Of a DNA stretch of 64,000 bases, positions 1,138 through 34,487 are shown one piece after another. Every line of letters begins with the position of its first letter. Within the stretch, counting starts at the first letter, position 1. Position numbers and translations under genes: made by a program. The DNA is taken from the sequence record MT682711.1; one strand, 5' to 3'. The notes under the pieces were generated by a model that saw nothing but the letters and a program-made list of their open reading frames with translations, was not told the origin of the DNA and ran no database searches. This stretch comes from Escherichia phage vB_EcoM_FB.

Positions 1138-3447
<2,310 letters not shown>

Positions 3448-3476
3448 ACAATAAAGCATAACCAAGAGGATTCAAA

Positions 3477-5459: not shown

Positions 5460-5584
5460 TCTATTATCCCAGGCTGTAATATAAAGAACCTAAAACCATT
5501 ATACCATGAGTTTGGTTACAGCGTACATCACGCAGAATTGCGCCTGGGGTTGATTATTCTTTAGGAATATGATTTATCAACTGT

Positions 5585-5592
5585 TATAAATA
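5585..5592 (+). promoter_or_regulatory. T4-type late promoter TATAAATA (gene 19)
   Basis: Exact TATAAATA 53 nt upstream of gene 19 ATG. Confidence 0.65.
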
Positions 5593-5644
5593 AATTAATC
5601 AGAACGTTCCTGGTGTGTCCAGGAACCGACTTAAGAGGCATCCC

Positions 5645-6136: not shown

Positions 6137-6137
6137 G

Positions 6138-6145
6138 TATAAATA
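6138..6145 (+). promoter_or_regulatory. T4-type late promoter TATAAATA (gene 20)
   Basis: Exact TATAAATA; leader then contains hairpin AAGGAGC-TTCG-GCTCCTT (6154-6171). Confidence 0.6.
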
Positions 6146-6193
6146 GAATTATCAAGGAGCTTCGGCTCCTTATCCCATTCATCGGAGACTCTA

Positions 6194-7768: not shown

Positions 7769-8013
7769 TGGAAGATTTAATCGAAGCTATTAAATCAAAC
7801 GACCTCGTAGCAGTTCGTAAAGCAGCAGCCCCGCTTATCGAATCTCGAGTAACCGCTTTGATTGAAGCCCGTAAAGCAGAAATTGCTCGCTCCGTTATGA
7901 TTGAAGGCGAAGAAGCTGACGAAGATGACGAAGACGACGAAAAATCCGATAAAGCAGATAAGAAAGACAAAAAAGAATCTGACGATGCGGATGATGACGA
8001 GGACGACGAATAA
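7768..8013 (+). CDS. 67: prohead core protein gp67
   Basis: 81 aa with highly acidic C-terminus; ATG overlaps gene 20 stop; T4 order 20-67-68-21. Confidence 0.8.
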
Positions 8014-8441
8014 TGTTCCTTATCCCTGATGATTACGAATTAACTCTAGAAAGCGTAGAGGCCAAAATTCCAGAAGCACAGGGACGTTTTGCTGCTCTTT
8101 CTGAAGCGCTCGAGAAAAGCGATATAAATAATCTTGTAGAGAACATGATTGCTGAAGGCGATATCGAATGTGCTATCGCTCTTGGTTCTTTAAATGAATC
8201 AATGGCTCTTAACGAATTTATAGTTAAACACGTTTCCTCTAAAGGTGAGCTTACTCGTACTAAAGATATTAAAACCCGTCAACGTAATGCGTTCCAAACG
8301 ACAGGTTTATCTAAAGCAAAACGCCGTCAGATTGCTCGTAAAGCATCTAAAACCAAACGTGCTAATCCGTCTACTCAAGTACGTGCCGAACGTAAGCGTA
8401 AGAAAGCCCGTTCTAAACGTAAAGCTTTTGGACTCAACTAA
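8013..8441 (+). CDS. 68: prohead core protein gp68
   Basis: 142 aa with basic C-terminus; overlapping start/stop with flanking genes; T4 synteny. Confidence 0.8.
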
Positions 8442-9076
8442 TGAAACCTGAATTGCTCATCGAACATTGGGGACAACCAGGTGAAATTATCGATGGGGTT
8501 CCTATGTTGGAATCTCATGATGGAAAAAATTCTGGGCTTGCTCCCGGCCTTTATATAGAAGGCATTTTCATGCAAGCAGAGGTAGTTAACCGTAATAAAC
8601 GGCTTTACCCAAAACCTATTTTGGAAAAAGCCGTTGCCGATTATATGGCAGAACAGGTTGCTACTAAACAAGCTTTAGGAGAATTAAACCACCCACCTCG
8701 TGCTAACGTTGACCCTATGCAAGCTGCTATCATTATTGAAGATATGTGGTGGAAAGGTAATGATGTTTATGGACGTGCACGTATCATCGAAGGTGACCAT
8801 GGCCCGGGTGATAAACTAGCTGCAAATATCCGAGCTGGCTGGGTTCCTGGTGTTAGTTCTCGCGGTCTTGGTTCTTTAACTGAAACCAATAAAGGATATA
8901 AGCGTGTAAACGAAGGTTATAAATTAACCGTCGGTGTTGATGCAGTATGGGGACCATCTGCTCCTGATGCTTATGTAACTCCGAAGCAAATTACAGAATC
9001 ACAAACGGTAGAAACCGATACCAGTGCCGATGACGCCTTTATGGCTCTCGCAGAGGCCATGAAAAAAGCGTTATAA
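8441..9076 (+). CDS. 21: prohead core protease gp21
   Basis: 211 aa; position and length match T4 gp21. Confidence 0.9.
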   Translation: MKPELLIEHWGQPGEIIDGVPMLESHDGKNSGLAPGLYIEGIFMQAEVVNRNKRLYPKPILEKAVADYMAEQVATKQALGELNHPPRANVDPMQAAIIIEDMWWKGNDVYGRARIIEGDHGPGDKLAANIRAGWVPGVSSRGLGSLTETNKGYKRVNEGYKLTVGVDAVWGPSAPDAYVTPKQITESQTVETDTSADDAFMALAEAMKKAL

Positions 9077-9079
9077 ATA
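9072..9079 (+). promoter_or_regulatory. T4-type late promoter TATAAATA (gene 22)
   Basis: Exact TATAAATA about 28 nt upstream of gene 22 ATG. Confidence 0.65.
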
Positions 9080-9106
9080 TTATTATCTAAACAACAGGAC
9101 TACAAA

Positions 9107-9922
9107 ATGCTTAAAGAACAACTGATCGCCGAAGCACAGAATATTGATGCTTCCGTTGCTCTTGACAGTATTTTCGAATCAGTTAATATTTCTCCGGAAG
9201 CAAAAGAAACTTTCGGCACTGTATTCGAAGCTACCGTCAAGCAACACGCCGTGAAACTGGCTGAATCTCACATCGCTAAAATCGCTGAAAAAGCGGAAGA
9301 AGAAGTCGAGAAAAATAAAGAAGAAGCTGAAGAAAAAGCCGATAAGAAAATCCAAGAAGCTGCCGGTCGTTTCCTTGACCACGTTGCTAAAGAATGGATG
9401 GCTGAAAACCAGCTGGCTGTTGATAAAGGTATTAAAGCCGAACTGTTCGAATCCATGTTGATGGGTATGAAAGAACTGTTTGTTGAACACAATGTGGTTG
9501 TTCCAGAAGAAGCAGTAGATGTTGTTGCTGAAATGGAAGAAGAACTCCAAGAGCAGAAAGATGAAACCGCTCGTCTGTTCGAAGAAGTTGGTAAGCGCGA
9601 CGCGTATATTAATTACGTACAGCGTGAAGTTGCTGTTACGGAAGCAACTAAAGACCTGACTGAATCCCAAAAAGAAAAAGTTAGTTCTCTGGTAGAAGGC
9701 ATGGATTATTCCGATGCATTCGGTAGAAAAATTGGCGCTATTGTTGAAATGGTTAAAGGTCAGTCTGACGTTGAAAACCCAATCACCGAAGCCGCTATAA
9801 ATAAAAATGTAGTCGATGCTGCGGCACTGAATTACATTTCAGAAGCAGTTGAAGAAAAAGGCGCTAAGCCTACCCTGTCCTTCGCGGACCTGTCTGCAAT
9901 CGCAGCATCACGAATTTCTTAA
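9107..9922 (+). CDS. 22: prohead core scaffold protein gp22
   Basis: 271 aa, acidic coiled-coil-like composition; T4 synteny. Confidence 0.9.
   Translation: MLKEQLIAEAQNIDASVALDSIFESVNISPEAKETFGTVFEATVKQHAVKLAESHIAKIAEKAEEEVEKNKEEAEEKADKKIQEAAGRFLDHVAKEWMAENQLAVDKGIKAELFESMLMGMKELFVEHNVVVPEEAVDVVAEMEEELQEQKDETARLFEEVGKRDAYINYVQREVAVTEATKDLTESQKEKVSSLVEGMDYSDAFGRKIGAIVEMVKGQSDVENPITEAAINKNVVDAAALNYISEAVEEKGAKPTLSFADLSAIAASRIS
9796..9803 (+). promoter_or_regulatory. T4-type late promoter TATAAATA inside 3' end of gene 22 (serves gene 23)
   Basis: Exact TATAAATA about 140 nt upstream of gene 23 ATG, within gene 22 as in T4. Confidence 0.6.
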
Positions 9923-9943
9923 TTTAATAAGGTTATACAACAC

Positions 9944-11503
9944 ATGAAAAAGAATGCATTAGTTCAAAAATGGTCCGCTCTGCTGGAAAACGAAGCTCTT
10001 CCTGAAATCGTTGGTGCTTCTAAACAAGCTATCATCGCTAAAATTTTCGAAAACCAGGAACAAGACATCCTGACTGCCCCGGAATACCGTGATGAAAAAA
10101 TCTCTGAAGCATTTGGTTCTTTCCTGACCGAAGCTGAAATTGGTGGTGACCACGGTTATGATGCTACCAATATCGCAGCTGGCCAGACTTCTGGTGCTGT
10201 AACTCAGATTGGGCCGGCAGTAATGGGTATGGTTCGTCGTGCTATTCCTCATCTGATTGCTTTTGATATTTGTGGTGTTCAGCCTCTGAATAACCCTACC
10301 GGCCAGGTATTTGCCCTGCGCGCAGTTTATGGTAAAGACCCTGTCGCTGCTGGCGCTAAAGAAGCTTTCCACCCGATGTATTCTCCGGACTCTATGTTCT
10401 CTGGTCAGGGTGCTGCTGAATCTTTCGAAGCACTGGCTGCAAGCAAAGTTCTGGAAGTTGGTAAAATTTATTCTCACTTCTTCGAAGCTACCGGTGCTGC
10501 ACACTTCCAGGCTGTTGAAGCCGTAACCGTTGATGCTGCTGCTACCGATGCCGCTAAACTGGATGCTGCTGTTACCGCTTTGATTGAAGCTGGTAAGTTG
10601 GCTGAATTGGCTGAAGGTATGGCTACTTCTATCGCTGAACTTCAGGAAGGCTTTAACGGTTCTACCGATAACCCGTGGAACGAAATGGGCTTCCGCATCG
10701 ACAAACAAGTTATCGAAGCTAAATCCCGTCAGCTGAAAGCAAGCTACTCTATCGAACTGGCACAGGACCTTCGTGCAGTACACGGTATGGATGCAGATGC
10801 TGAACTGTCCGGTATCCTTGCTACCGAAATTATGCTCGAAATCAACCGTGAAGTTATCGATTGGATTAACTACTCTGCACAGGTTGGTAAATCTGGTATG
10901 ACCAACACCGTTGGCGCTAAAGCTGGTGTGTTTGACTTCCAGGACCCGATTGATATCCGTGGTGCTCGTTGGGCCGGTGAGAGCTTTAAAGCCCTTCTGT
11001 TCCAGATTGATAAAGAAGCAGCCGAAATCGCTCGTCAGACCGGTCGTGGTGCTGGTAACTTCATCATCGCTTCCCGTAACGTAGTTAACGTACTGGCTGC
11101 AGTTGATACTTCTGTAAGTTATGCAGCTCAAGGTCTGGGTCAAGGTTTCAACGTTGACACAACCAAAGCAGTATTTGCCGGTGTTCTTGGTGGTAAATAT
11201 CGCGTTTACATCGACCAGTATGCACGTTCCGATTACTTCACCATCGGTTATAAAGGCGCTAACGAAATGGACGCAGGTATCTACTATGCTCCGTACGTTG
11301 CACTGACCCCGCTGCGTGGTTCCGATCCGAAGAACTTCCAACCGGTAATGGGCTTCAAAACTCGTTACGGTATCGGTATCAACCCGTTCGCTGACCCTGC
11401 TGCTCAGGCTCCTACCAAACGTATCCAGAATGGTATGCCTGACATCGTTAACAGCCTTGGTCTGAATGGTTACTTCCGTCGCGTATATGTTAAAGGTATC
11501 TAA
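9944..11503 (+). CDS. 23: major capsid protein gp23
   Basis: 519 aa; T4 gp23 is about 521 aa; position after gene 22. Confidence 0.95.
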   Translation: MKKNALVQKWSALLENEALPEIVGASKQAIIAKIFENQEQDILTAPEYRDEKISEAFGSFLTEAEIGGDHGYDATNIAAGQTSGAVTQIGPAVMGMVRRAIPHLIAFDICGVQPLNNPTGQVFALRAVYGKDPVAAGAKEAFHPMYSPDSMFSGQGAAESFEALAASKVLEVGKIYSHFFEATGAAHFQAVEAVTVDAAATDAAKLDAAVTALIEAGKLAELAEGMATSIAELQEGFNGSTDNPWNEMGFRIDKQVIEAKSRQLKASYSIELAQDLRAVHGMDADAELSGILATEIMLEINREVIDWINYSAQVGKSGMTNTVGAKAGVFDFQDPIDIRGARWAGESFKALLFQIDKEAAEIARQTGRGAGNFIIASRNVVNVLAAVDTSVSYAAQGLGQGFNVDTTKAVFAGVLGGKYRVYIDQYARSDYFTIGYKGANEMDAGIYYAPYVALTPLRGSDPKNFQPVMGFKTRYGIGINPFADPAAQAPTKRIQNGMPDIVNSLGLNGYFRRVYVKGI

Positions 11504-11519
11504 GATATAACCTTATTAT

Positions 11520-11545
11520 GGGAGACTTCGGTCTCCCATTCTTGT
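11520..11545 (+). terminator. rho-independent terminator after gene 23
   Basis: GGGAGAC-TTCG-GTCTCCC hairpin followed by ATTCTTGTTTCTG. Confidence 0.7.
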
Positions 11546-11552
11546 TTCTGTA

Positions 11553-11819
11553 TTATGCAATCTTAACTCGGCGGTTGATGATATCACGGAAGTCAATACG
11601 ATTTTCTTGGATTTTCAGCCAGTTACCAGATTTGTCTTTGGTATGGGTAGAGTATTCACCGTTCCACCAGAAGTCGGTAGCATAAGCCATGGCTTCGTAT
11701 TTCTTAACTAAGGCATTCACTGCATTACCATTAGGATTGTTACCGAATTTTTCTACCAGAGCTTTGATGTCTTTATCAAGAGCGGAAAGAGTAGTACGAA
11801 TAAAGTTTAACTTGTTCAT
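11553..11819 (-). CDS. hypothetical small early protein (88 aa) in the slot T4 uses for segD
   Basis: ATG at 11819 preceded by GAGGAG SD and an early promoter; track ORF extends 5 codons further to 11834; no recognizable motif. Confidence 0.5.
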   Translation of the reverse strand: MNKLNFIRTTLSALDKDIKALVEKFGNNPNGNAVNALVKKYEAMAYATDFWWNGEYSTHTKDKSGNWLKIQENRIDFRDIINRRVKIA

Positions 11820-11848
11820 TTTTAATCTCCTCATGTTTTGATAGGTCT

Positions 11849-11878
11849 ATAGTAACATGTGAGAATCTTGCTGTAAAC
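11849..11878 (-). promoter_or_regulatory. T4-type early promoter (GTTTAC -35, TACTAT -10), cassette copy
   Basis: Minus strand GTTTAC, 18-nt spacer, TACTAT; followed by conserved leader ...CATGAGGAGATTAAAAATG. Confidence 0.6.
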
Positions 11879-11884
11879 AACTTT

Positions 11885-11892
11885 TATAAATA
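11885..11892 (+). promoter_or_regulatory. T4-type late promoter TATAAATA (gene 24)
   Basis: Exact TATAAATA 29 nt upstream of gene 24 ATG. Confidence 0.65.
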
Positions 11893-11920
11893 AACATATA
11901 CCCTCAATAAGGAAAGCGCA

Positions 11921-13204
11921 ATGGCAAAGATTAACGAATTACTGCGCGAGTCAACAACTACTTCCAGCAACTCATTGGGTCGCCCTAATCTTGTTGCTTT
12001 GACCCGTGCTACAACCAAATTGATTTACCGTGATATTATCGCCGAACAACGTACTAGCCAGCCTATTGCTGCACTGTATGGTGTCAAATATCTTACCCCT
12101 GATAATGAATTTAGTTTCCAGACAGGTGCCTCTTATGGTGGTGAAGTTGGTTCTAAAGACCGTGAAACTATCCCAGAACTCACAGATAAGGCCCAGGCGA
12201 TTGCTCAGGGTGAATATTTCAAGTACCAGAATGTGGTTTATAAGGCTCTTAAAGCAAGCCCACTCGCGTCCACTAGCGCCACAGAATTGGCTGATGCTCT
12301 TCAAGAAGGTTTAGTGTCATTAACATGTCGTCTGGTTCCTGATGCTGCCCATACCACTAAATTTGAAGCGAGTGATGTAGAAATCTCTGATGCTGTATTC
12401 CAGGTTAATAAATGGAATGCTCCGGTTAAGACCCGTAAATTGAAGACGGCTTTGACTGTAGAATTAGCGCAGGATATGGAATCAAATGGCTTTGACGCGC
12501 CGGCGTTCTTAGAAGACCTCTTGGCTACAGTAATGGCAGATGAAATTAATAAAGACGTTCTGCAATCTCTAATAACCGTATCCAAACGTTATAAAGTTAC
12601 TGGTGTATCTGATAACGGCATCATCGATTTGTCTTATGACAGTGCTCCTGAATCTGCACGTAAACTTTATGAACTCGTTTGTGAGATGAATTCTGAAATC
12701 CAGAAAACTACTTCTTATTCTGGCACGTTTGTTGTGGCTTCAAGTCGTGTGGCTGCAATGCTTGCAGGTTCTGGCTGGTTAAAACATAAACCCGAAGATA
12801 ATAATTGGCTTCCGGAAACTGCATACGGATATTTGTTGAATGGTCTGCCTCTGTTTTGTGACGTTAACAGTCCATTAGATTATGTTACCGTTGGTGTTAA
12901 AGAGAATTACGGCGGTAATGAAGTTGTCGGTTCTATTTTCTACGCTCCCTATACCGAAGGCTTAGATTTAGATGACCAAGAACACGTCGGTGCTTATAAG
13001 GTTATTGTTGACCCGGATTCATTACAACCTTCTATTTCTCTGATGGTTCGTTATGCACTATCAGCTAACCCGTACACCGTGGCTAAAGACGATAAAGAAG
13101 CTCGTGTTATCGATGCAACCAATATGGATTTAATGGCTGGACAGAGCAATATGTCTTATCTGGTTGGCGTTAAACTTCCGGCAATTATTTACGAGGCTGA
13201 TTAA
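11921..13204 (+). CDS. 24: capsid vertex protein gp24
   Basis: 427 aa; N-terminus MAKINELLRESTTT... matches my recollection of T4 gp24; gp23-like fold family. Confidence 0.9.
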   Translation: MAKINELLRESTTTSSNSLGRPNLVALTRATTKLIYRDIIAEQRTSQPIAALYGVKYLTPDNEFSFQTGASYGGEVGSKDRETIPELTDKAQAIAQGEYFKYQNVVYKALKASPLASTSATELADALQEGLVSLTCRLVPDAAHTTKFEASDVEISDAVFQVNKWNAPVKTRKLKTALTVELAQDMESNGFDAPAFLEDLLATVMADEINKDVLQSLITVSKRYKVTGVSDNGIIDLSYDSAPESARKLYELVCEMNSEIQKTTSYSGTFVVASSRVAAMLAGSGWLKHKPEDNNWLPETAYGYLLNGLPLFCDVNSPLDYVTVGVKENYGGNEVVGSIFYAPYTEGLDLDDQEHVGAYKVIVDPDSLQPSISLMVRYALSANPYTVAKDDKEARVIDATNMDLMAGQSNMSYLVGVKLPAIIYEAD

Positions 13205-14484
13205 TGTCTAAGATTGTAGACCTAATTAAAGAATCCACATTGACGGCTGCCAGCTCGGTTGGCCGTCCTGCTCTTCTTTCATACACCCAAGCAACTAATA
13301 AACGAATCTTTAAAGCCCTAGTTGCTGAACAAAAAACAAATCAACCGGTTGCTGCTCTGTATGGGGTACGTGTACTGAATCCTGACGACAAAATGACTTA
13401 TCTTGGTGGAGCAACATTTGCGGGCCAGATTGGTATGACGGAACGTGAAAATATTCCAGAATTTACTGATTCATCTACAGCTTATGCGGTCGGTGATATG
13501 TTCCAGTTTGAAAGCGTAGTGTTTAAAGTTCTAGAAGCATCTCCTTTCGCCGGAACCACAGAAACCAACCTCAGCGAAGTTATTTCTGAAGCAGTGGCAG
13601 CCGGCCATATCCGTATGGTGTCGGATGCTGCTATTACTTCTAAATTTGAACAAGGCCATCCTGAAATTGCTGAAACCGGATTCCGTATCGACAAATGGCA
13701 ATCTGAAGTTAAATCACGTAAACTGAAAACTTCATTGACAGTCGAATTAGCCCAAGACCTAGAATCTAACGGGTTTAATGCTCCTAATTTCGTTGAAAAT
13801 CTGCTAGGCATTCAAATGGCAGAAGAAATTAATAAGGATGTATTACAGTCATTAATTACCGTGAGCTCTCGTTTTAAAGTCCAGGGTGTTTCTGAAAAGG
13901 GTGTATTAGACCTTACCAACCCTCGCTACGATAATGCCCAGGACCGTGCTCGCACATTATATTATTATATGTGTGAGATGAACTCTGCCGTCCAACGACA
14001 GACTTCTTTTGCCGGGACTTATGCAGTAGCTAGTTCTCGTTGTGCTGCTATTCTCGCCGCCTCTGGTTGGGTTGAGAAAAAGGAAGACCAGGACGAATTG
14101 GCTTATGGTATATTAAAGAATGGCCTACCACTTTATGCTGATATGAATAGTCTATGTGATTATGTTATTGTTGGTGTAAATGCCCAGATGGGTGAAGGAC
14201 AGACGGTCGCATCTTTATATTATGCGCCTTATACGGAAGGTTTGAATGTGGTTGACGAAGAAGGTGATACTTCAGTTGGTGAATTTAAGGTTATTGTTGA
14301 CCCGGAAAGCTTACAACCTACAGTAGCATTGCTTGCTCGTTATGCATTGACTGCAAACCCTTATACCGTCGCTAAGGACGATAAAGAAGCCCGCATTATT
14401 GATGGTTCTGATATGGACAAAATGGCTAATCAAAGTCAATTGAGTTCTTATCTCGGCGTAAAATTACCGCCTTTAGAAAAATAA
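13204..14484 (+). CDS. second gp24-like capsid vertex protein (divergent tandem paralog)
   Basis: 426 aa; shared blocks with the first copy (SRKLKT.LTVELAQD.ESNGF.AP.F.E.LL, EINKDVLQSLITVS, ANPYTVAKDDKEAR); start overlaps stop of first copy. Confidence 0.85.
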   Translation: MSKIVDLIKESTLTAASSVGRPALLSYTQATNKRIFKALVAEQKTNQPVAALYGVRVLNPDDKMTYLGGATFAGQIGMTERENIPEFTDSSTAYAVGDMFQFESVVFKVLEASPFAGTTETNLSEVISEAVAAGHIRMVSDAAITSKFEQGHPEIAETGFRIDKWQSEVKSRKLKTSLTVELAQDLESNGFNAPNFVENLLGIQMAEEINKDVLQSLITVSSRFKVQGVSEKGVLDLTNPRYDNAQDRARTLYYYMCEMNSAVQRQTSFAGTYAVASSRCAAILAASGWVEKKEDQDELAYGILKNGLPLYADMNSLCDYVIVGVNAQMGEGQTVASLYYAPYTEGLNVVDEEGDTSVGEFKVIVDPESLQPTVALLARYALTANPYTVAKDDKEARIIDGSDMDKMANQSQLSSYLGVKLPPLEK

Positions 14485-14504
14485 AAGGGACCTTACGGTC
14501 CCTT
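14485..14504. terminator. bidirectional terminator hairpin between the second gene 24 copy and rnlB
   Basis: AAGGGACC-TTAC-GGTCCCTT flanked by A-run and T-run; lies between convergent genes. Confidence 0.65.
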
Positions 14505-14510
14505 TATCGT

Positions 14511-15518
14511 TTATTTGGATACTAGTTCAACCCATACATGTCTTAATGTTTCTTTTACGCACTCAACGAGCTGCTTTTTAACTTCAACGGGATTTTCCGC
14601 ATCAGTTAATTCCAATTCTTCACGGGCGGCTTCTTCAAGGATATCCTGGACTGTCAAGCCCATCACCTTTCCGAAATCCTTCGGCGATACTTCGCCAATC
14701 TTACTGATGACATTGTTAATGCGGTTAACAGTCACATAATCGGTGAATTGCCACATCAAATCCATATCGTCTTGGGACAATACCACTGCAACTTTAATAG
14801 GCTTATCAGACTTTTTCTTCTCGCTGAATTTAGAGTTCTTACATTTAATCGCCACACGATTTCCGTTTGGAAGCCAGGTAGGAACATCAGGTTTCAATAC
14901 AAAGCCTTCAGCCGTGAATACCTTACCTTCTACCTTAGGAATAAAATCGGTTGAGTTTGCAATAGTTAAGCCTGCGTTATCCACTGCAAAATTATAATCA
15001 GGAACAACTGAATCAAAATCATTAGGAAGTTTAATAAGGTCTTCAAAGCTACCAGTGGCCAGACATGGAGCTACCTTAAACTTATGGATAATACAGAAGG
15101 CTTCCATCAATGTATCGGTTAGAACAGATTCTGAGCCATCTTCTTTAGTAACTCGGATATCGAACACATAAAAGTCTTTATCGCCGTAGTCCACATTCTT
15201 CTGGATGCCTGTCCCAGCGAATTCGCCATAAATCTGGTATGACTGATAATTAATCGATTCAATTAGATGTTGAACTGATTTAATAGAATCAGCGTAGTTC
15301 TTAAGTACAATTTCATAACCATAGAAATCTTCAGCAGGGAGGATAGGGCCAGTGCGCTTGGCGCATGTGACTGCGTCACGTTCTATGATTAAACTAAAGT
15401 TGGTTCCATGAATCTTCTCACGTGCTACCCATTCACCACCAGTCAAACCGTTAGTACGGAGTTTTTCGATAAACTTACTGTTGTAGTGGTTTTCGAGACT
15501 GCTATATTTCTTGAACAT
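14511..15518 (-). CDS. rnlB: RNA ligase 2 (Rnl2)
   Basis: 335 aa; [20 protein letters not shown]... with adenylation motif KIHGTN; strong match to my recollection of T4 Rnl2. Confidence 0.9.
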
Positions 15519-15632
15519 AAATCACCATAATAAATATAATTAAATAGAAGAGCTAGTAGTCTTCTGTCACCAAGCCAAATGGGTTAACGGAAGGACCTAG
15601 ACCCATTATATCACACCTAAATTTAAAGCATA

Positions 15633-15842
15633 TTACTTTGAACTAGAACGCGCTTTGCGCCGAACCTTGTTGTTCAATCTTTTACGATAAACAACCTTTT
15701 CTTTCGCTTTAAATTTGGCCTTGGCTTGTTCTACATCAACCCATGCTTTGGCCATGTCCTTAGCGGTCCCGCCCATTTTTTTAGCAATTTCTATAAAATT
15801 CAACCCAGATTCGTGTAAAAAATGTACTTTAACCTTATCCAT
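15633..15842 (-). CDS. hypothetical small basic protein (24.2/24.3 slot), possible helix-turn-helix
   Basis: ATG at 15842 (track ORF starts earlier); 69 aa; SGLNFIEIAKKMGGTAKDMAKAW then a lysine/arginine-rich tail. Confidence 0.45.
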   Translation of the reverse strand: MDKVKVHFLHESGLNFIEIAKKMGGTAKDMAKAWVDVEQAKAKFKAKEKVVYRKRLNNKVRRKARSSSK

Positions 15843-15924
15843 AACAATTCTCTCGTTGAGTTGGTAAACCCATCTTAACATAGAATTTTTAACTTGTAAA
15901 CAGGAATTTTGTACTTTAATGCAA

Positions 15925-15944
15925 AATGGGCCTTGCGGCCCATT
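15925..15944 (-). terminator. terminator-like hairpin downstream of hoc
   Basis: AATGGGCC-TTGC-GGCCCATT immediately after the hoc stop. Confidence 0.5.
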
Positions 15945-15945
15945 A

Positions 15946-16794
15946 TTAATAAATGTAATCGTATATAATACCAGCTTCTAAAGCGGTGCGATGAATAATT
16001 CGACCGTTACGAGATTCTTGTACATCAACCTCTGAATAGTCGGTAATCATTTTTTGAAGTGTATATCGGTGCAAATAATACGGGCTATCCGGGTCATCTG
16101 TTTTCCAGTCTTTGCCTTCAAGAGTCATTTTCTGGATTTCATCCATAACCCACCAACCAACCCAAATATATGCTGAATTACGAACAGGGAGTGGATGAAC
16201 GTAAGGTAATTCGCCATCCGGAACCGGTGCGACTTTAGCCGTGACTGTTACATTACCGGTTTTTGTGACAGTCGCCGGGTTATAATCAGTCGCCGAAACC
16301 GCAACAGAAACTTCAATAACCTGTGAACCTTCAGTGCTTGTATCGATTGCTAGAGTATCCGTGGTGCCAACTACAGGAGAACCGTCTTTCTTCCAAGAAT
16401 AGGCAAAAGTAGCACCAGCAGGAGCGCCGACCACATCCGCTTTAAAAGAAGCTGGAGTGCCTTCCGGAACATTAATCGAAGCTGGGGTTAATGTCACAGA
16501 AACACCGGAAATGGTTTTATTCTGGATAGTTAAAGTTGTTTCGGCTTCAGCTGTTTCTGGTTCGCCGTCCGCCGGTGTAGTTGTTGCAACAACTTTAATA
16601 GTCTTGCTGCCTGCCGGGCCAACAGCAACATAATCCATTGCAGCAGTCACAGAAGATTGAGGAACGCCATCAACGGTCCAGACAAATGATTCGGTACCTT
16701 CAGCTGCAGCACCGGAACCGGTCGCAGTGAAATTGGTTGTTGCTCCAATAACGGCCGTAGCCGCCAAAGGAGCCATATCTACGGTATAAGCCAT
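15946..16794 (-). CDS. hoc: Hoc outer capsid decoration protein (shortened, fewer Ig-like repeats)
   Basis: 282 aa against about 376 in T4; C-terminal capsid-binding domain strongly conserved (LPYVHPLPVRNSAYIWVGWWVMDEIQKMT...); Ig-like repeats upstream. Confidence 0.85.
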   Translation of the reverse strand: MAYTVDMAPLAATAVIGATTNFTATGSGAAAEGTESFVWTVDGVPQSSVTAAMDYVAVGPAGSKTIKVVATTTPADGEPETAEAETTLTIQNKTISGVSVTLTPASINVPEGTPASFKADVVGAPAGATFAYSWKKDGSPVVGTTDTLAIDTSTEGSQVIEVSVAVSATDYNPATVTKTGNVTVTAKVAPVPDGELPYVHPLPVRNSAYIWVGWWVMDEIQKMTLEGKDWKTDDPDSPYYLHRYTLQKMITDYSEVDVQESRNGRIIHRTALEAGIIYDYIY

Positions 16795-16803
16795 AATAAA
16801 CCC

Positions 16804-17475
16804 TTATTTTAAAGTGACAAAAGATGAGTTACGAGTTTCACGTACTAATACTGAACCATTACGATTAATGTAATAAATCAGACTAAATAATGTTTGGTGG
16901 GCAGAAGGATGTTGGAAAGCAGTTGGACGTTCTTTCCAATCCGGAGTCTCAGAAATCCATTGGTAAATCCACCAAGGAACGGTGCAATAACCTGGGTTCT
17001 TACCGATAAGCAAAAGATTAGGACTGAAGTTTTCAGGTAAAGAGAATACAGGTTTTTCAGATTCAACAACCTTGGCTATAGCCCCTTTGAATTTCTCTTC
17101 GTCAAATGGAACATCCTCTTCGATAATCTCTACCTTAGGAAGTTCGGCTACCTCAACGACTTCTACTGCAGCCTCAGGGGCATCGAACAACAGGGTGGCT
17201 TCTTCTTTAGCTGGTTCAGCACCATCAACAAATTCGTTAGCACCTGTAAGTTCGTCGGCAGCATCAATCAAATCAGAAATGGACAACCCTTCGGTTTCTG
17301 GAAGTGGTTCGTCAGCCAAGGCTTTAAAGCCTTCAGAGATATCGATAATCAAATTATCAAACGAACGGGTTTTCTTAAGTTTTAAACCGAACTGTTCGCC
17401 GTATTCGATTAACTTAGCTTTAGCTTCTTTTTTATCTTCGAGTGCACGAAGCTCTTCAATATATTGAGTATCCAT
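16804..17475 (-). CDS. inh: Inh, inhibitor of prohead protease
   Basis: 223 aa; position between hoc and uvsW; matches my recollection of T4 Inh. Confidence 0.8.
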   Translation of the reverse strand: MDTQYIEELRALEDKKEAKAKLIEYGEQFGLKLKKTRSFDNLIIDISEGFKALADEPLPETEGLSISDLIDAADELTGANEFVDGAEPAKEEATLLFDAPEAAVEVVEVAELPKVEIIEEDVPFDEEKFKGAIAKVVESEKPVFSLPENFSPNLLLIGKNPGYCTVPWWIYQWISETPDWKERPTAFQHPSAHQTLFSLIYYINRNGSVLVRETRNSSFVTLK

Positions 17476-17494
17476 AATTAGTCTCTTGTTGGTG

Positions 17495-17502
17495 TATAAA
17501 TA
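17495..17502 (+). promoter_or_regulatory. T4-type late promoter TATAAATA (uvsW)
   Basis: Exact TATAAATA 29 nt upstream of uvsW ATG. Confidence 0.6.
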
Positions 17503-17508
17503 TAACTA

Positions 17509-17516
17509 TATTTATA
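17509..17516 (-). promoter_or_regulatory. T4-type late promoter TATAAATA on minus strand (inh)
   Basis: Reverse complement is exact TATAAATA, about 35 nt upstream of inh ATG. Confidence 0.55.
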
Positions 17517-27948: not shown

Positions 27949-28239
27949 TTATTTACGGAACGAAATGAAACCTGCTGCAGTCATTAGTGGTTGCTTTTTA
28001 ACAAACACCGTAACTGAAATAGGAGCTTCAGATTCGAGCTGTCCTGTCACTACACCATTAAAGATATTTTCAGTTTGTTCCGGCTGAGAAAAGTTCTCAA
28101 CAGGACGGATATCAAATTGCTTATCTTCACCGAAAACTCGACGCAATTCATTACCAACTGCACTGTCAAACTCTTCGGAAGCAGGGATAACGTTTTCAAC
28201 TACCAGTTCTTGACCATTAAAACGGAATGCAGATTTCAT
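27949..28239 (-). CDS. hypothetical protein (96 aa), alt.-x slot
   Basis: ATG 28239; early promoter and GAGGAG leader upstream; no recognizable motif. Confidence 0.5.
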   Translation of the reverse strand: MKSAFRFNGQELVVENVIPASEEFDSAVGNELRRVFGEDKQFDIRPVENFSQPEQTENIFNGVVTGQLESEAPISVTVFVKKQPLMTAAGFISFRK

Positions 28240-28267: not shown

Positions 28268-28297
28268 ATAGTAACACCATCCTTGGCGTTTGTAAAC
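28268..28297 (-). promoter_or_regulatory. T4-type early promoter, cassette copy, immediately after the Alt-A stop
   Basis: Minus strand GTTTAC, 18-nt spacer, TACTAT, then leader ...ACATGAGGAGAACATTATG. Confidence 0.55.
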
Positions 28298-30348
28298 TAC
28301 CCTTGTACAAATTTATATTGGAGAGCGTCGATATCTATACAAGAAGCTAACAAGCCAAGACCTCTGTCTGAGTTCTTTTTCTTCTCATTAGAAACAAATG
28401 AATCAAAAGAAAGCTCACCACCATCTTTATAGACAACGAGTTCTCCTGTTTCCATTAGGGCATCACCGTCGTATACTACAGCTTCATTAAGTTCATCTGC
28501 AGTCATTACTTCGGCTTGAATAAACTTATTGTTAGAACGAGTAGTCCCGTTGTTATATGAGGCATCTGTAATTTTATTGATTTTAACCATCAACCCTCTA
28601 GGAAGAATTACTTCCATTTCGTTAGAAGGGGCTAGGTCTCCACCAGGTAAAACGACATTTACTTTATTAGCACCAGTAATGGCCCAACCGATACCTACTA
28701 AGGTATCTTTAACTGAATATACCAAGCCTTCATCAGATTTATCTAAAGCAACATCTCGACGCTTTTCATCAGGTAAAACACCAACACCAGAATCGGTCAT
28801 CCATGTACCAAAAATATTTGGATAAAGTGATGTTGATACAAAGTTCCTGAAATAGAATACTTTGTTTTTAACCATAGCCAGGTAAATATCAGGAATCATT
28901 CGTTGAGAACGATAAAGCGTGATACCTTCCGGAAGTTGTTCACCATTTTCAAAAGCAGAATCTAAGTTATTGATAGCTTTTTCTATCTCTTCATTAGTCA
29001 AAATACTGGTTCTTGTATTAGGGTCGCGGATTCCTAAAAGAACATTATTCATATCTTCGTAACCGGAGCCAACGTATTCACGAATACCACGCTTCTGTGC
29101 TGGTGTATAACGAGATACGTCTTTATTTTCTACAATAGAATGTAATTGCCAACCCGCGGTAAGAGCATAAACACGCAGTTCGCGCTGAATAATTTTGGTC
29201 TTTATAGCATTCCAAGAATTTTCGGCTAACTCTATGGCTTCGTGATAACCTAAGTGAGAATGCCGGGCCATTAGTTTTTGAAGCCAAGGGCCTTTATATT
29301 CTTCGATGACATCATCAACCACTGAAGCATAATTTTCTAGAGCTTTTACTGAAGTCACATTTAATCCATGTAATTTCTCAAAAGCTCTCATTTTTATGTC
29401 GGTATTAATTTCTTCCATTTTATCTTCTGGAATAAGAAGGTTGTCTTTAAACGACATACCGCCGGTATTAGCACTAATGGTATTTTCTAAAGCCAAGAAA
29501 GAATTAGAAATAACCTTTATTTCATTTGCTTCCGGCATTAAAGGACCTGTAGCAGGTTTATTCAATTCGACAGCATTAGACTCAAATTTCTTAAACATTG
29601 GAGTTTCGAAACGAGATGATTCTAAGGATTGCGACATAGCAATAGCACGACGTGAAATCTTAGTCTTGGTAATGACAGCCTTATCAGTACGTTTCTCTTC
29701 AACTTTAGCTATACTTGCCGAGACGGCTTCGGCCTTACTTACGGCCTGGCCAGTTTCCTTAGAAACATAAACTTCGCCAACTTTAGACTCAACCTTAGTA
29801 TAAAGCTCGGCATCAATTTCAGGCATACCCTTAATATCTTCAATATTAGTACCACGACGTACTAAAAGAACATAGGTATGTTTTCCGGTGAATTGGTACA
29901 TGGCATCAACAACTTTAAACTTACCACCAGTACGAGCCATAGCTAAACGAGCTAATACACGCTGAACAGTAGGACCCTTACCTTTCATTTTCTTGGTAGG
30001 GAACCGGAAAAGAACTGCATCCATTTTAAGTTTGTTTACTTGTTCGTATACAGTATCAAAAATGGTATTCAGCGTACCAAGTGGGTCAGAACCTAACCCA
30101 CCTTTCAACTCGGCTGGGCTACCCTTAGCAGACAAACTCATCAAAATAACATGAACATATTTGTCTCCGGGCTTAACCATTTTAATAGCGTCTCCTTGAG
30201 ACGCATAAGATACCATACGAGCAACCAGGTTATCATTACCTGGCGCTTTAATAGAGAAAATCTGTGGGATACCGGAACCTGGTTTAAGATTTATTACTGG
30301 ATAGTTTTTATCGGAATCACTATCAAAAACCTCGTTTAAATTTTCCAT
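28297..30348 (-). CDS. alt: Alt-like ADP-ribosyltransferase, paralog A
   Basis: 683 aa (T4 Alt about 682); R-S-E ART motifs (YRSQRM, FRNFVSTS, NEMEVILPRGL); strong match to my recollection of T4 Alt. Confidence 0.85.
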   Translation of the reverse strand: MENLNEVFDSDSDKNYPVINLKPGSGIPQIFSIKAPGNDNLVARMVSYASQGDAIKMVKPGDKYVHVILMSLSAKGSPAELKGGLGSDPLGTLNTIFDTVYEQVNKLKMDAVLFRFPTKKMKGKGPTVQRVLARLAMARTGGKFKVVDAMYQFTGKHTYVLLVRRGTNIEDIKGMPEIDAELYTKVESKVGEVYVSKETGQAVSKAEAVSASIAKVEEKRTDKAVITKTKISRRAIAMSQSLESSRFETPMFKKFESNAVELNKPATGPLMPEANEIKVISNSFLALENTISANTGGMSFKDNLLIPEDKMEEINTDIKMRAFEKLHGLNVTSVKALENYASVVDDVIEEYKGPWLQKLMARHSHLGYHEAIELAENSWNAIKTKIIQRELRVYALTAGWQLHSIVENKDVSRYTPAQKRGIREYVGSGYEDMNNVLLGIRDPNTRTSILTNEEIEKAINNLDSAFENGEQLPEGITLYRSQRMIPDIYLAMVKNKVFYFRNFVSTSLYPNIFGTWMTDSGVGVLPDEKRRDVALDKSDEGLVYSVKDTLVGIGWAITGANKVNVVLPGGDLAPSNEMEVILPRGLMVKINKITDASYNNGTTRSNNKFIQAEVMTADELNEAVVYDGDALMETGELVVYKDGGELSFDSFVSNEKKKNSDRGLGLLASCIDIDALQYKFVQG

Positions 30349-30351
30349 TAT

Positions 30352-32436
30352 TTACCCTTGGATGAATTTTTCTGGGATGTCATAGAGGTCTATGCATGAA
30401 GCCAAAAGAGGCAGTACATCAAACCGTGTAGATTTAACAAATGAATCAAAAGATACGGGGCTTTCGGAAGTATCGAAGTCATCTTGATATACGACCAACT
30501 CGCCGGTTTCCATTAGTACGTCACCATCATATACCACAGATTCTTGAAGCTCATCTGTTGTCATAACTTCAGCTTGGATGAGTTTTGTATTACTAGATGT
30601 TGTTCCATCATTATTAGAAGCATCTGTTATTTTATTAACTTTGACCATTAATCCACGCGGTAGAATAACTTCGGCTTCAGTTGCTATTCCGAGATTTCCT
30701 GGATATACGACATTAACTTTATGAGCCCCATCAATGGCCCATCCTATTTGAACCTTAACGTAATCGGGATTTTCCTTATACGCTCTTATTTCATTAGGAT
30801 TAATAGTTATTCCTTCTTCATTTTTATCAACTGTCAATTCGTTGCGAACTTCCGGTTCTAAAAGACCAATACCAGCGTGCGTAACACCAAAACGTCCGAA
30901 AATTATAGGAGTTAAAGAAGTAGATACAAAATTTCTAAAATAAAACACTTTATTTTTAACTAGTGCTTCGTATATAGGAGCAGTCATACTCTGGGCACGA
31001 TAAACTGTAATGCCTTCCGGTATACGGTCACCATTTTCAAAAGCTGAATCTAAATTATTTACAGCGGATTCGATATCTTTTTCGCTCATAACCTCATAGT
31101 TCTGAGGATTATAACGTCCTAAAAGAAGATTATTTATGTCTGTATATCCTGAACCACAATATTCTCTGATGCCGCGCTTTTGTGATGGGGTATATTTAGA
31201 GCCCTCACGAGCAATAGTAATATCGACCATAATACCACCACCTACACCAGCAAAACTATACACACGTTTTTTAATGAACTTAGTCTTGGCTGCTTTCCAC
31301 TTGGACTCGGTTAATTCATTCCAGACGTCGTCAGGTTGGCCTTTACGAGTTCTGTTATGGATAGCCAGCCACTCGCCTTTATATTCTTCGAAAATGGTAT
31401 TAATGGTAGAGGCATATTTTTCCAGGGCTTTAACAGATGTCAAAGGTTCATTTTTGATAGCTGTAAGAATTTTCTCTTTAATTTTCTCTTGGATTTCACC
31501 AATACCGTGAAGTGGGAACAATTTATAGTCGTAATGCAATTCTTCAGCAGTGCCTTCAGCTACTATATTAGCAACCTTATTTTTAGCCGCAGGAGAATTG
31601 TTATTAGTGACCATTTCCTGGGCCTCAGGGATTAATGGAACTGTTGCCGGTTTATTAAAATCTACTGCAGTAGCTTCATATTTCTTAAACAGCTCACTTT
31701 CATTACGATAAGATTCTAACGATTGACTTGCCGCAATAGCACGTCGAGAAATCTTAGTCTTGGTTATAACCATTTTATCAGTGCGACGTTCTTCAACCTT
31801 AGCAATACTACCGGCGATAGCAGTTTCTTTAGTAACCTGCACGCCTTCTTTTTTAGAAATATAAACTTCACCGACATCAGAATCTACCTTAGTATACAAT
31901 TCAGCATTAATTCCAGGCATACCTTTGATATCTTCTATATCAGCTTGTTTACGAACTACCAGGATGTAAGTATGTTTACCGGTAAATTGGTACATAGCCG
32001 GAACTACTTTAAAACGTCCACCTGTTTTCTGTGCTACCAAACGTTGGATAATCCGTTGAACGATAGGGCCTTGACCTTTCATTTTCTTAGTAGGGAAACG
32101 GAACATCACGGCATCCATACGAAGCTTTTTAACTTGGTCATAAACCACATCAAAAATAGTATTAATCGCATCTACGGGAGTAGGGCCTAGGCCACCTTTA
32201 AGTTCGGCAGGCGAACCTTTAGCTGAAAGGCTCATAAGGATAACGTGGGCATATTTATCACCCATCTTAACCTGTTTAATAGCATCACCTTCAGAAGCGT
32301 AGGATACCATACGCGCCACTAATTGGGATTCTGCGTCACCAATCTTCCAAATCTGGGGTACTTTAAGTTTTGGGTTCAAGTTTACTGTAGGCAGTGTGCC
32401 TTCGGACTCAAACACTTCATTTAATTGTTCGGTCAT
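30352..32436 (-). CDS. Alt-like ADP-ribosyltransferase, paralog B
   Basis: 694 aa; same architecture and ART motifs (YRAQSM, FRNFVSTS, TEAEVILPRGL); differs from A mainly between the STS and ExE motifs; only 3 nt separate B stop from A start. Confidence 0.85.
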   Translation of the reverse strand: MTEQLNEVFESEGTLPTVNLNPKLKVPQIWKIGDAESQLVARMVSYASEGDAIKQVKMGDKYAHVILMSLSAKGSPAELKGGLGPTPVDAINTIFDVVYDQVKKLRMDAVMFRFPTKKMKGQGPIVQRIIQRLVAQKTGGRFKVVPAMYQFTGKHTYILVVRKQADIEDIKGMPGINAELYTKVDSDVGEVYISKKEGVQVTKETAIAGSIAKVEERRTDKMVITKTKISRRAIAASQSLESYRNESELFKKYEATAVDFNKPATVPLIPEAQEMVTNNNSPAAKNKVANIVAEGTAEELHYDYKLFPLHGIGEIQEKIKEKILTAIKNEPLTSVKALEKYASTINTIFEEYKGEWLAIHNRTRKGQPDDVWNELTESKWKAAKTKFIKKRVYSFAGVGGGIMVDITIAREGSKYTPSQKRGIREYCGSGYTDINNLLLGRYNPQNYEVMSEKDIESAVNNLDSAFENGDRIPEGITVYRAQSMTAPIYEALVKNKVFYFRNFVSTSLTPIIFGRFGVTHAGIGLLEPEVRNELTVDKNEEGITINPNEIRAYKENPDYVKVQIGWAIDGAHKVNVVYPGNLGIATEAEVILPRGLMVKVNKITDASNNDGTTSSNTKLIQAEVMTTDELQESVVYDGDVLMETGELVVYQDDFDTSESPVSFDSFVKSTRFDVLPLLASCIDLYDIPEKFIQG

Positions 32437-32490
32437 AATAATTCCTCTTTAATAACCTTATTTATGCCAGAAAAGGCCCGAAGGCCTTTA

Positions 32491-32673
32491 TTAAAGTACT
32501 AACAGCGTACGGTACACTTCAAATTTAGGACCCTTTTCATAGCGGTCGAAATTATCTTTAAAATCAGCGAACGCGATTTCATTTTCAAATTCAAGGACAA
32601 TTTGGGACACTGCAGTGGAGACATCCCCACCTTCTTTATATCCAATAACCACGGTTTCTAAATAAGCTTTCAT
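32491..32673 (-). CDS. hypothetical small protein (60 aa) between ligase and Alt-B
   Basis: ATG 32673 lies 1 nt from the ligase stop; track ORF extends to a TTG at 32715; followed by hairpin 32472-32489. Confidence 0.35.
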   Translation of the reverse strand: MKAYLETVVIGYKEGGDVSTAVSQIVLEFENEIAFADFKDNFDRYEKGPKFEVYRTLLVL

Positions 32674-32674
32674 A

Positions 32675-34198
32675 TTATAGACCAGTTTGAGACCAATCAC
32701 CGAATACATCTTCAAATGTATCAGCTTCTGTTTTATCGAAACGCCAACCTTTAATGATTGGAAGGAAAATACCTACAGTATCAGTACGTCCTTTAGAATG
32801 AACCCAACCATTACATTCACAGTCAGCAATACGTCCAATCAACTTACCTTCACGAGCTTGTTTCATAAGAAGTTCACGGTCTAAATCAGGACGGTCTTCC
32901 AATGGAATCAATACCTTTTTACCTGATTTATCTTTCTTATGGGTAGTATCTTTAAAGCCTGAACCACAGTCACTTGTAATTCGACGACAACGTGATACTA
33001 ACTCAACACCACCTAGTTTGTTAGGGTCCTTCGAGTGTTCATAATAACCTACCACTTCTAAAGCGATATCGATTACTTCTTTGAACTTGATAAGATTCTT
33101 AGAACGGCGGTTTTCCCAGTAGGAGTCCATGTTCTTAAGGATAATGCCTTCCAGACCTTGGTCGACATATTTCTTATAAACGACTTTAGCTTCTTCAAGA
33201 TTATTAACCCACTGGTTTTCGATAGCTTCAACACGCGTTGTGCCATGCAATACGACATTATGAGCCACCATAAGTTCTAAGGCTGTAAAGCGTACATCAT
33301 ACTTATCGCCTTTAATTTTGCCTTCAGAATACACGACATCCAGTGGGACATAATCCCATGCCTGTAATACCATACCAGCGGCTTCAGTAGCCGAAATAGT
33401 TCCTTGAAGAGCCTTATTAGCCAATCCATTTGACGTAGAACGATCGGCGACAGTTTGGAATTCCTTAGCCTTACTTAATTCAGGAAGTTCCTCGTCAAAC
33501 ATACTAAACAAATCATTAGATGCTTTAGGTTCTACCTTAGGAGTATGGTAAACTAATTCGCCATCAATCATAACGCCATTAGGATGGCGTTGTCGAGCTT
33601 CTTCGGTCATGGCCATTAATTCAGCCGCCAAAAGATTAAGCCCTTGATATTCGTTACCACCACGAGTAAGGAATGTCACACCATCGTTACGAACTTCGGC
33701 AAAACAACGAGCACCATCAGCTTTTAATTGAGCAAACGCTGGCCATTTAATATTTTTCTTAATCAAAGCTTCATCATAAGAACTCGCCAACATCTGCGGT
33801 TGTTCAGGGATTAAACCTTTCCAACCCTTGTTAGCAATAGAAATCGATGCACCACATTCAAGGTCGCGCATCATTACACGACGTAATACCTCGGCATCCG
33901 GGGCCTTAGCATCAGCAATGATTTGAGCCAGTTCTTCAATAGCCGCATTACCCGTAATCTTACGTGTGGCTAATGTGAATTCAGCGAAATCAAGAAGGTC
34001 TTCAAGAGTAATCATACCAAAGGATTGAGATGTAAATCCAGGTTCTGGCCACTTTTTAATACCGTAGTTCAGACGACGGGTATAAGCCATACGATAAACA
34101 CGTTTCAGAAGCTCATTGTCCTTTTCACGAGCAATAATGGCTTCTTTAGCTTTAGTAGAATCAATAGCAGCAATTTCGTTTAAAATATCTAAAATCAT
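32675..34198 (-). CDS. 30: ATP-dependent DNA ligase gp30
   Basis: Start re-set to ATG 34198 (GAGGTGA SD); MILDILNEIAAIDSTKAK...; adenylation motif KADGARC; matches my recollection of T4 ligase. Confidence 0.95.
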   Translation of the reverse strand: MILDILNEIAAIDSTKAKEAIIAREKDNELLKRVYRMAYTRRLNYGIKKWPEPGFTSQSFGMITLEDLLDFAEFTLATRKITGNAAIEELAQIIADAKAPDAEVLRRVMMRDLECGASISIANKGWKGLIPEQPQMLASSYDEALIKKNIKWPAFAQLKADGARCFAEVRNDGVTFLTRGGNEYQGLNLLAAELMAMTEEARQRHPNGVMIDGELVYHTPKVEPKASNDLFSMFDEELPELSKAKEFQTVADRSTSNGLANKALQGTISATEAAGMVLQAWDYVPLDVVYSEGKIKGDKYDVRFTALELMVAHNVVLHGTTRVEAIENQWVNNLEEAKVVYKKYVDQGLEGIILKNMDSYWENRRSKNLIKFKEVIDIALEVVGYYEHSKDPNKLGGVELVSRCRRITSDCGSGFKDTTHKKDKSGKKVLIPLEDRPDLDRELLMKQAREGKLIGRIADCECNGWVHSKGRTDTVGIFLPIIKGWRFDKTEADTFEDVFGDWSQTGL

Positions 34199-34208
34199 AA
34201 TCACCTCA

Positions 34209-34487
34209 TTAGTCATGGATTCTATTATAAGCCACATCAGCCAAAAGCAAGTCTAATCGCTTATGATAAGAGAACACAAATCTCATTCGCCCATCAGATT
34301 TGAACTTGGACATAAAGTGGACATAAATGAATCCCTGTTCGACGCATTCGCGCCAAACAGGATGGTCTTTAGCCGGATTTACATCAAATGAGTAATCATG
34401 ATTCACATGACGAATAAACTGGTTTACATGGCCATAATCCATTGTAGTGGTAGGACCATAGTCTGAAATTGTATGAACTACAAACAT
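34209..34487 (-). CDS. hypothetical protein (30.1 slot)
   Basis: 92 aa from ATG 34487; no recognizable motif. Confidence 0.45.
   Translation of the reverse strand: MFVVHTISDYGPTTTMDYGHVNQFIRHVNHDYSFDVNPAKDHPVWRECVEQGFIYVHFMSKFKSDGRMRFVFSYHKRLDLLLADVAYNRIHD

Follow-up and report, generated by a model that had tools for sequence, protein, structure and literature searches.

Tandem genes for modular Alt-type ADP-ribosyltransferases with T6-type and T4-type enzyme halves in Escherichia phage vB_EcoM_FB

The alt locus

The window analysed here is a stretch of 64,000 nucleotides from Escherichia phage vB_EcoM_FB (sequence record MT682711.1), and the element under study is a pair of adjacent genes, altB and altA, encoding proteins of the Alt family of ADP-ribosyltransferases (ARTs). 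Megablast places the window in Dhakavirus (JS98 group), with 100% identity to phage IME540 over the part that is held contiguously in the record of that phage, 93.7% to Bp7, and 92.1% to Ec2-ASingh. The pair comprises:

30352..32436, minus strand: altB, the upstream (slot 1) Alt gene, 694 amino acids, with a T6-Alt-type enzyme half (open reading frame, Pfam, PHROG)
28297..30348, minus strand: altA, the downstream (slot 2) Alt gene, 683 amino acids, with a T4-Alt-type enzyme half (open reading frame, Pfam, PHROG)
30349..30351, minus strand: spacer of 3 nt, ATA, from the altB stop (TAA) to the altA start (ATG) (sequence CAAGGGTAAATAATGGAA)

The positions of both open reading frames (ORFs) in the ORF list are those given by the first-pass annotation, which reported two full-length Alt-like genes in tandem, 3 nt apart; coordinates, spacer, and family matches all agree with that description. 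The Pfam family PF03496 (ADPrib_exo_Tox) is matched by protein A with 102 bits and by protein B with 125 bits, at a Pfam cutoff of 23.4. The 674-position profile of PHROG 802, 'Alt-like RNA polymerase ADP-ribosyltransferase', aligns with residues 1-682 of A (E 1.3e-254) and 1-693 of B (E 2e-263), and no match to the full-length proteins was found in NCBIfam. A and B are 56% identical over their full length (BLASTP, E = 0). ORFs of ~690 codons with these family matches cannot have a chance origin.

The neighbouring genes are the set known from T4: gp29, gp48, and gp54 on the plus strand, a homologue of alt.-3 (DUF5498), the two alt genes, a homologue of alt.1 (a Phage_blade protein in Pfam), and DNA ligase. 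The pair is flanked by the baseplate genes 48/54 and alt.-3 on one side and by alt.1 and DNA ligase (gene 30) on the other, which matches the maps of Bp7 and RB27 and is also the position of T4 Alt (gpAlt; NP_049811).

Domain architecture

In length, in a four-part architecture, in arginine-serine-glutamate (R-S-E) motifs, and in L/I-x-E motifs at both ends, A and B resemble T4 Alt. Domain boundaries in the window are as follows:

31741..32436, minus strand: altB N-terminal domain, residues 1-232 up to the KISRR junction, propeptide MTEQLNE (identity, alignment, model)
30541..31206, minus strand: altB ART core, residues 411-632, with R480, S505-T-S507, and E587-A-E589; ends at LQE-632
30355..30540, minus strand: altB C-terminal tail, residues 633-694, predicted disordered, presumed C-propeptide (model)
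29647..30348, minus strand: altA N-terminal domain, residues 1-234, slot-2 type, propeptide MENLNE (LNE-6) (N-domain identity matrix, megablast)
28483..29118, minus strand: altA ART core, residues 411-622, with R480, S505-T-S507, and E577-M-E579; ends at LNE-622
28300..28482, minus strand: altA C-terminal tail, residues 623-683, predicted disordered (model, T4 homology)

The R-S-E motifs are kept in both proteins, as had been noted at first pass: LYRSQRM in A and VYRAQSM in B, FRNFVSTS, and NEMEVILP in A and TEAEVILP in B. The ART folds of both proteins are confidently predicted, and the predicted structure superposes on solved R-S-E ARTs (C3/VIP2-like fold). Sequence identity to the R-S-E toxins C3, VIP2, iota, CDTa, and Vis is 13-23%. 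In contrast to this toxin family, Alt has no pore-forming partner, because it is delivered by the phage head. The STS and ExE motifs are ~70-80 residues apart in A and B, compared with ~40 residues in C3 and iota, and the longer spacing is a variable Alt-specific insert. An insertion specific to B had been proposed in this segment, and alignments bear it out, with a gap of ~10 residues in A opposite NPNEIRAYKENPDYVK; in the predicted structure of B the 10-residue insert has an extra helix at 547-555.

Motifs for the prohead protease gp21 (L/I-x-E; motif only) lie near both termini, at LNE-6 and LNE-622 in A and at LNE-7 and LQE-632 in B. The models of A and B turn disordered exactly outside both sites: the predicted local distance difference test score (pLDDT) is <50 at residues 621-669 of A and 632-672 of B, and in B residues 1-12 are disordered, ahead of an N-domain with an alpha/beta fold. 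Across 38 aligned homologues there is little or no variation in the catalytic residues or in either L-x-E glutamate. E7 of B is invariant in the 38 sequences, as are E632, Y636, D637, and G638, and E622 and the YDG motif of A are likewise invariant. In T4 Alt the prohead protease cuts at ITE-6 and LTE-619 and removes 63 C-terminal residues (PMC5694885); the tail of A (623-683) is homologous to this C-propeptide.

Compared with T4 Alt, the N-domains of A and B reach only 42-46% identity (E 1e-68 to 1e-72; 46% for B). Neither a search of the N-domain against a Pfam copy without the model PF26846 nor one of its profile against all PDB sequences, both at E up to 10, gave a match. In precomputed annotation, PF03496 is accompanied by PF26846, an Alt-specific N-terminal domain, in three proteins that are 95-99% identical to A or B (P0006, P0009, and P0078).

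Occurrence and age of the array

The pair is annotated in GenBank for several relatives, as alt/alt' in Bp7, as alta/altb in JS10 and IME08, and as two 'Alt-like' genes in IME281, and three alt copies are present in QL01, AnYang, and WG01. These annotated Dhakavirus pairs and triplets have an array, junctions, and a conserved B-type gene like those of the window. Gaps of 3 nt between alt genes recur in QL01 and AnYang. The B-type copy is conserved in all Dhakavirus examined, and altB is 96-99% identical to Bp7 alt, QL01 gp200, IME281 gp077, IME08 alta, WG01 gp200, and AnYang gp135. Bp7 has its own A and B pair, with 94-98% protein identity to that of the window. Unlike the window, most Dhakaviruses carry in slot 2 a '198-type' half that is ~35% identical to A, or have extra '199' or '201' types. 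The record of IME540 (MT150133) is linearised inside altA, so that its downstream alt gene is split across the record ends; window 29740-32436 corresponds to record positions 1-2697 and the enzyme half of A to 168981-170138, where identity is 99.7%, not 100%, so that the window may stem from a very close relative.

Two alt copies are also found in >300 Tequatrovirus records. One of these is RB27, whose layout is that of the window: ligase, alt.1, alt, a second alt 3 nt on, alt.-3, and gp54. The statement of the first-pass annotation that T4 has one alt gene is correct for intact genes, but T4 also holds a decayed second copy, alt.-1/alt.-2. The T4 record describes alt.-1 and alt.-2 as an old duplication of the start of alt, and they are 92% identical to the N-domain of the second (slot-2) RB27 gene. 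The T4 alt/alt.-1 junction, CAAGGATAAATCATGGAA, matches the window junction CAAGGGTAAATAATGGAA, and the same junction is present in RB27. T4 is a degenerate case of the alt array. Paralogues of alt, including a full-length duplicate in phage 44RR, have been reported (Nolan et al. 2006; PMC1524935). From the Dhakavirus, RB27, T4 remnant, and 44RR data, the duplication is therefore common, old, and annotated, and the rarity implied at first pass does not hold. Of the two features that would have counted there against the interest of the pair, commonness and shared targets, this bears out the first only. As gene content the pair is already known, having been deposited and annotated in Bp7 and relatives.

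A tblastn search with the Alt N-domain gave 1,823 places in 1,201 phage records, and with the ART core 1,177 phage records were matched at 1,652 places. When the N-domain alone was run against a word-indexed protein collection, only five truncated proteins were obtained. This was rejected as a sign of rarity and attributed to the sensitivity of the index, in view of the 1,201 records matched by tblastn.

Exchangeable enzyme halves

Alt proteins are modular. An N-domain of ~232 residues, which tracks genus and array slot, is joined to an exchangeable enzyme half. Identities per domain, in the numbering of A, differ accordingly between the comparisons with B and with T4 Alt:

N-terminal domain, 1-236: A versus B 69.5%; A versus T4 Alt 45%
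Middle region, 237-410: A versus B 38.5%; A versus T4 Alt 61%
ART core, 411-615: A versus B 62%; A versus T4 Alt 80%

A has its enzyme half in common with T4 Alt. The loop that in ARTs is named the ADP-ribosylating toxin turn-turn (ARTT) loop reads PGGDLAPSNEME in A and is nearly identical to that of T4, PGGSLAPSNEME. The T4-type half is in the upstream gene in T4 but in the downstream gene in the window. The C-half of B is instead 77% identical to those of T6 Alt (X69894 / CAA49518) and RB27 gp194 (RB27_194), and in the ART core its identity to T6/RB27-like Tequatroviruses is 94%. B also shares with T6 Alt and RB27 gp194 the 10-residue insert, NPNEIRAYKENP(D/E)YVK, the ARTT loop, the upstream slot, and a late-promoter-like site upstream. 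The N-domain of B, however, is of Dhakavirus type and 45% identical to that of T6 / RB27 Alt. The partner gene in RB27 is of a '198-like' type, whereas that in the window is of T4 type.

The slot-2 N-domains are 89-98% alike across Dhakaviruses, and the C-halves attached to them only 31-35% alike. These C-halves are of T4-type in the window and Bp7, of '198-type' in IME08, IME281, WG01, QL01, and AnYang, and of '199-type' in QL01 and AnYang; WG01 has a fifth type of enzyme half, upstream of its B-type gene. For most Dhakaviruses the megablast alignments break off near query base 1348-1351 (~window 29647), which is the domain junction after KISRR. Neighbour-joining trees cluster the N-domains first by genus and within it by slot, and the C-halves by type across genera. 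Among Dhakaviruses the T4-type C-half occurs in 4 records from 3 phages (IME540, Ec2-ASingh, and Bp7), out of ~50 with a slot-2 N-domain. At ~72% identity it is found in ~178 further records, Tequatrovirus by their top matches.

A and B are not simple paralogues within one lineage, and their enzyme halves are two old types, T6-type and T4-type, that cross genera. The first-pass annotation implied a recent, lineage-specific duplication in this phage group followed by divergence. The clean tandem junction (stop, 3 nt, start) and N-domains that are closer to each other than to T4 would fit such a history, but co-adaptation to the capsid core of the phage, or gene conversion, better accounts for the likeness of N-domains within a genome. 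The C-half tree joins A with T4 Alt and B with T6/RB27 Alt, the two-gene layout and its junction recur in the Tequatrovirus RB27 and as a remnant in T4, the synonymous sites of A and B are saturated, and slot-2 N-domains bear at least three unrelated enzyme halves within Dhakavirus. All of this speaks against a recent duplication, which we consider very unlikely. A recent transfer of the A enzyme half from T4 was rejected as well. It is 69% identical to T4, near the 58-65% of neighbouring vertical orthologues, and it therefore represents an old T4-type lineage and not a recent gift from T4; the closest Tequatrovirus matches to the C-half of A reach only ~72%. The array is old and spread over T-even phages, and it probably evolves via swaps of enzyme halves at the conserved KISRR junction.

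Natural chimeras were also observed. In P0030, a metagenome contig of 2,685 bp from ENA, a slot-1 N-domain 97% identical to B is joined to an A/T4-type C-half 95% identical to A, and P0021, from phage vB_EcoM_005, has an N-domain that is 98% B-type and a C-half only 57% identical to B. The third Alt-like gene of WG01 (gp201, 6296-8191), upstream of the B-type gene, encodes 631 amino acids with intact catalytic motifs. Its N-domain is a variant, 65-66% identical to A and B, in which KVSKR replaces KISRR, and its tail is short and without the conserved YDGD...METGE...KFxQG C-propeptide.

Selection on the two copies

Both genes are under strong purifying selection. For the window against Bp7, the ratio of nonsynonymous to synonymous substitution rates (dN/dS) comes to 0.08 (A) and 0.06 (B), with ART-core values of 0.08 and 0.02, respectively. 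Synonymous divergence (dS) between A and B is ~1.8. Together with the intact motifs, these values fit the earlier suggestion that both copies are active enzymes, and we consider it highly probable that A and B are functional Alt-family ARTs in an old modular array.

One of the copies could alternatively be decaying or non-enzymatic, for instance a purely structural head component. Decay of slot 2 is exemplified by T4 alt.-1/alt.-2, and alt' of Bp7 reads STA where STS is expected. In T4, however, the second copy is found only in decayed form, whereas both window ORFs are uninterrupted and have the complete R / STS / ExE set. The dN/dS values of the ART cores and the confidently predicted ART folds also count against decay, and it is hardly credible for either window copy.

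Expression signals

Signals for expression were read from the sequence upstream of altB, and their function is presumed from that reading:

32442..32489, minus strand: upstream control region of the pair, with hairpin, late-promoter-like octamer, and Shine-Dalgarno sequence (sequence reading)
32472-32489, minus strand: hairpin AAAGGCC-TTCG-GGCCTTT plus T (sequence reading)
32459-32466, minus strand: late-promoter-like CATAAATA (sequence reading)
32442-32450, minus strand: strong Shine-Dalgarno sequence AAAGAGGAA (sequence reading)

No promoter or terminator was found between altB and altA, in the junction sequence or in a scan of 27.8-33 kb; altA is preceded by a weak Shine-Dalgarno sequence, AAGGG, within the 3' end of altB. 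At the equivalent place the T6 alt record annotates a late promoter, TATAAATA, and a ribosome-binding site, and a conserved terminator upstream of alt has been described (Nolan 2006; PMC1524935). Since the hairpin, CATAAATA, and the Shine-Dalgarno sequence precede B and nothing comparable lies between B and A, altB and altA are most likely co-transcribed late, as a single transcript, from the promoter-like site upstream of altB. In the window as a whole, TATAAATA occurs 16 times against 6.4 expected (0 of 100 shuffles reached 16). Ten of the 16 sites are on the plus strand at 2.9-17.5 kb (2938-17516), presumably ahead of late structural genes.

Divergence between A and B and the question of targets

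The divergence of A and B had been described as greatest between the STS and ExE motifs. Identity in this block is indeed low, 25-44% at A residues ~509-547, but the helical region that precedes the ART core (~273-400) is the largest and most divergent block, with identity down to 15-33% (30-residue windows). Confinement of the divergence to the STS-ExE segment was ruled out by the sliding-window profile.

Five T4-type and five T6-type sequences from both genera were compared for positions that are fixed within a type and different between types. Such differences make up 23% of columns in 551-580 (strand and ARTT loop), 17% in the helices at 334-410, and 15% in 509-550, and there are none in the N-domain and C-propeptide. 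Each type has its own ARTT loop, which is conserved across genera (PGG(D/S)LAPSNEME versus PG(N/S)LGIATEAE). Substrate recognition by C3-like ARTs is known to depend in part on this loop. Because the types differ by fixed substitutions in the ARTT loop, the post-STS insert, and the preceding helices, partly different substrate sets for A and B appear the most likely arrangement, which we favour by a modest degree. A link of the divergence to substrates, as suggested at first pass, is plausible.

The two copies may instead be redundant and act on the same host proteins, chiefly RNA polymerase alpha, with two genes raising or securing the injected dose. The catalytic core and architecture are common to A and B, their ART cores are still 62% identical, and they appear to be co-transcribed without signals between them. 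T4 Alt is, moreover, non-essential and promiscuous (PMC9026906). A plain need for dosage would, however, be served by a recent identical duplicate, and dS between A and B is saturated while each type is kept at dN/dS <0.1. The types are conserved across genera (94% and 80% in the ART core), and their fixed differences are located in the ARTT loop and adjoining substrate-facing elements. In every multi-copy genome examined, the copies differ in type, and two of one type never occur together. Redundancy is in our judgement unlikely, although less so than decay or recent duplication.

Neighbouring genes

The next gene downstream of altA is the alt.-3 homologue (27949-28239, minus strand, 96 amino acids, 58% identical to T4 Alt.-3). 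T4 evades the CmdTAC defence system through mutations that lengthen Alt.-3 at its C-terminus (PMC11618068). Mentions of 'Alt' in the CmdTAC paper were rejected as evidence on Alt paralogues, since they concern this neighbouring gene. Upstream of the pair, the ORF call for the alt.1 homologue (32491-32715, minus strand, TTG start) has 74 amino acids, against 60 in the Bp7 annotation, and that for ligase (32675-34237, minus strand) has 520, against 513 in Bp7. The two calls overlap by 41 nt. As both are longer than the Bp7 annotations, the real starts of alt.1 and ligase are probably internal.

Discussion

The locus is probably best explained as a two-gene late array of packaged and processed modular Alt ARTs with partly different targets. 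The genes would encode arginine-specific mono-ADP-ribosyltransferases that are packed into the capsid. Each protein would consist of a short N-propeptide with L-x-E at its end; an alpha/beta domain of ~230 residues, which follows genus and slot and presumably carries the protein into the prohead core; an exchangeable enzyme half, in which the helical region is followed by a C3/VIP2-like ART core bearing R, S-T-S, and E-x-E; and a disordered C-propeptide of ~60 residues after the second L-x-E site. T4 Alt acts on Arg265 of RNA polymerase alpha and on other proteins. About 40 copies of it are present per head and are injected with the DNA (PMC9026906). By analogy, A and B would be built into the prohead and trimmed at both ends by a gp21-type prohead protease, and on injection with the DNA they would ADP-ribosylate host proteins in the first minutes of infection. 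That both proteins are packaged and processed in this way is quite likely, and copy A is likely the functional equivalent of T4 Alt, because it has the T4-Alt-type enzyme half.

Several points weigh against this interpretation. Divergence of substrate-facing loops is no proof of different targets. Even T4 Alt by itself acts promiscuously, and in the older literature 'alteration' of RNA polymerase is reported for T-even phages with either type. The divergent segments were placed by their sequence position relative to known ART elements and not by distance from the NAD pocket. Packaging, processing, and targets of A and B are argued from homology, and the same would apply to any Dhakavirus; a literature search aimed at functional studies of Alt paralogues or of Dhakavirus Alt gave no specific result. 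Regarding late expression, the exact octamer TATAAATA is absent from the alt region, where only the variant CATAAATA is found upstream of altB, and generic sigma-70 and terminator scans of 27.8-33 kb gave results no better than shuffled sequence.

Tentatively, and as a reading that we consider less likely than not, alt arrays may be viewed as modular injected effectors, in which slot-specific delivery domains, tuned to the capsid core of each phage, carry ART warheads that are swapped between phages at the KISRR junction and hit different host proteins, possibly including defence systems, besides RNA polymerase. At least five warhead types are seen (T4-, T6-, 198-, 199-, and 201-type). In the Tequatroviruses examined (T4, T6, and RB27), the first alt gene apparently has either the T4- or the T6-type, and the unusual union of both warheads in the lineage of the window would argue against redundancy. 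More speculatively still, a GNAT-like fold may have given rise to the conserved N-domain, which might then do more than serve in packaging.

Alt, a textbook example of an injected enzyme for host takeover, is usually treated as a single T4 gene, while most relatives have an array of two or three genes with exchangeable halves. What the present analysis adds is the description of slots and exchangeable enzyme halves, the recognition of the single alt of T4 as the exception, and the unusual combination of a T4-type with a T6-type half. If the halves do differ in their targets, studies of T4 only would under-sample the action of injected ARTs in the first minutes of infection, and a phage with both T4-type and T6-type halves would lend itself well to a direct comparison of the two.

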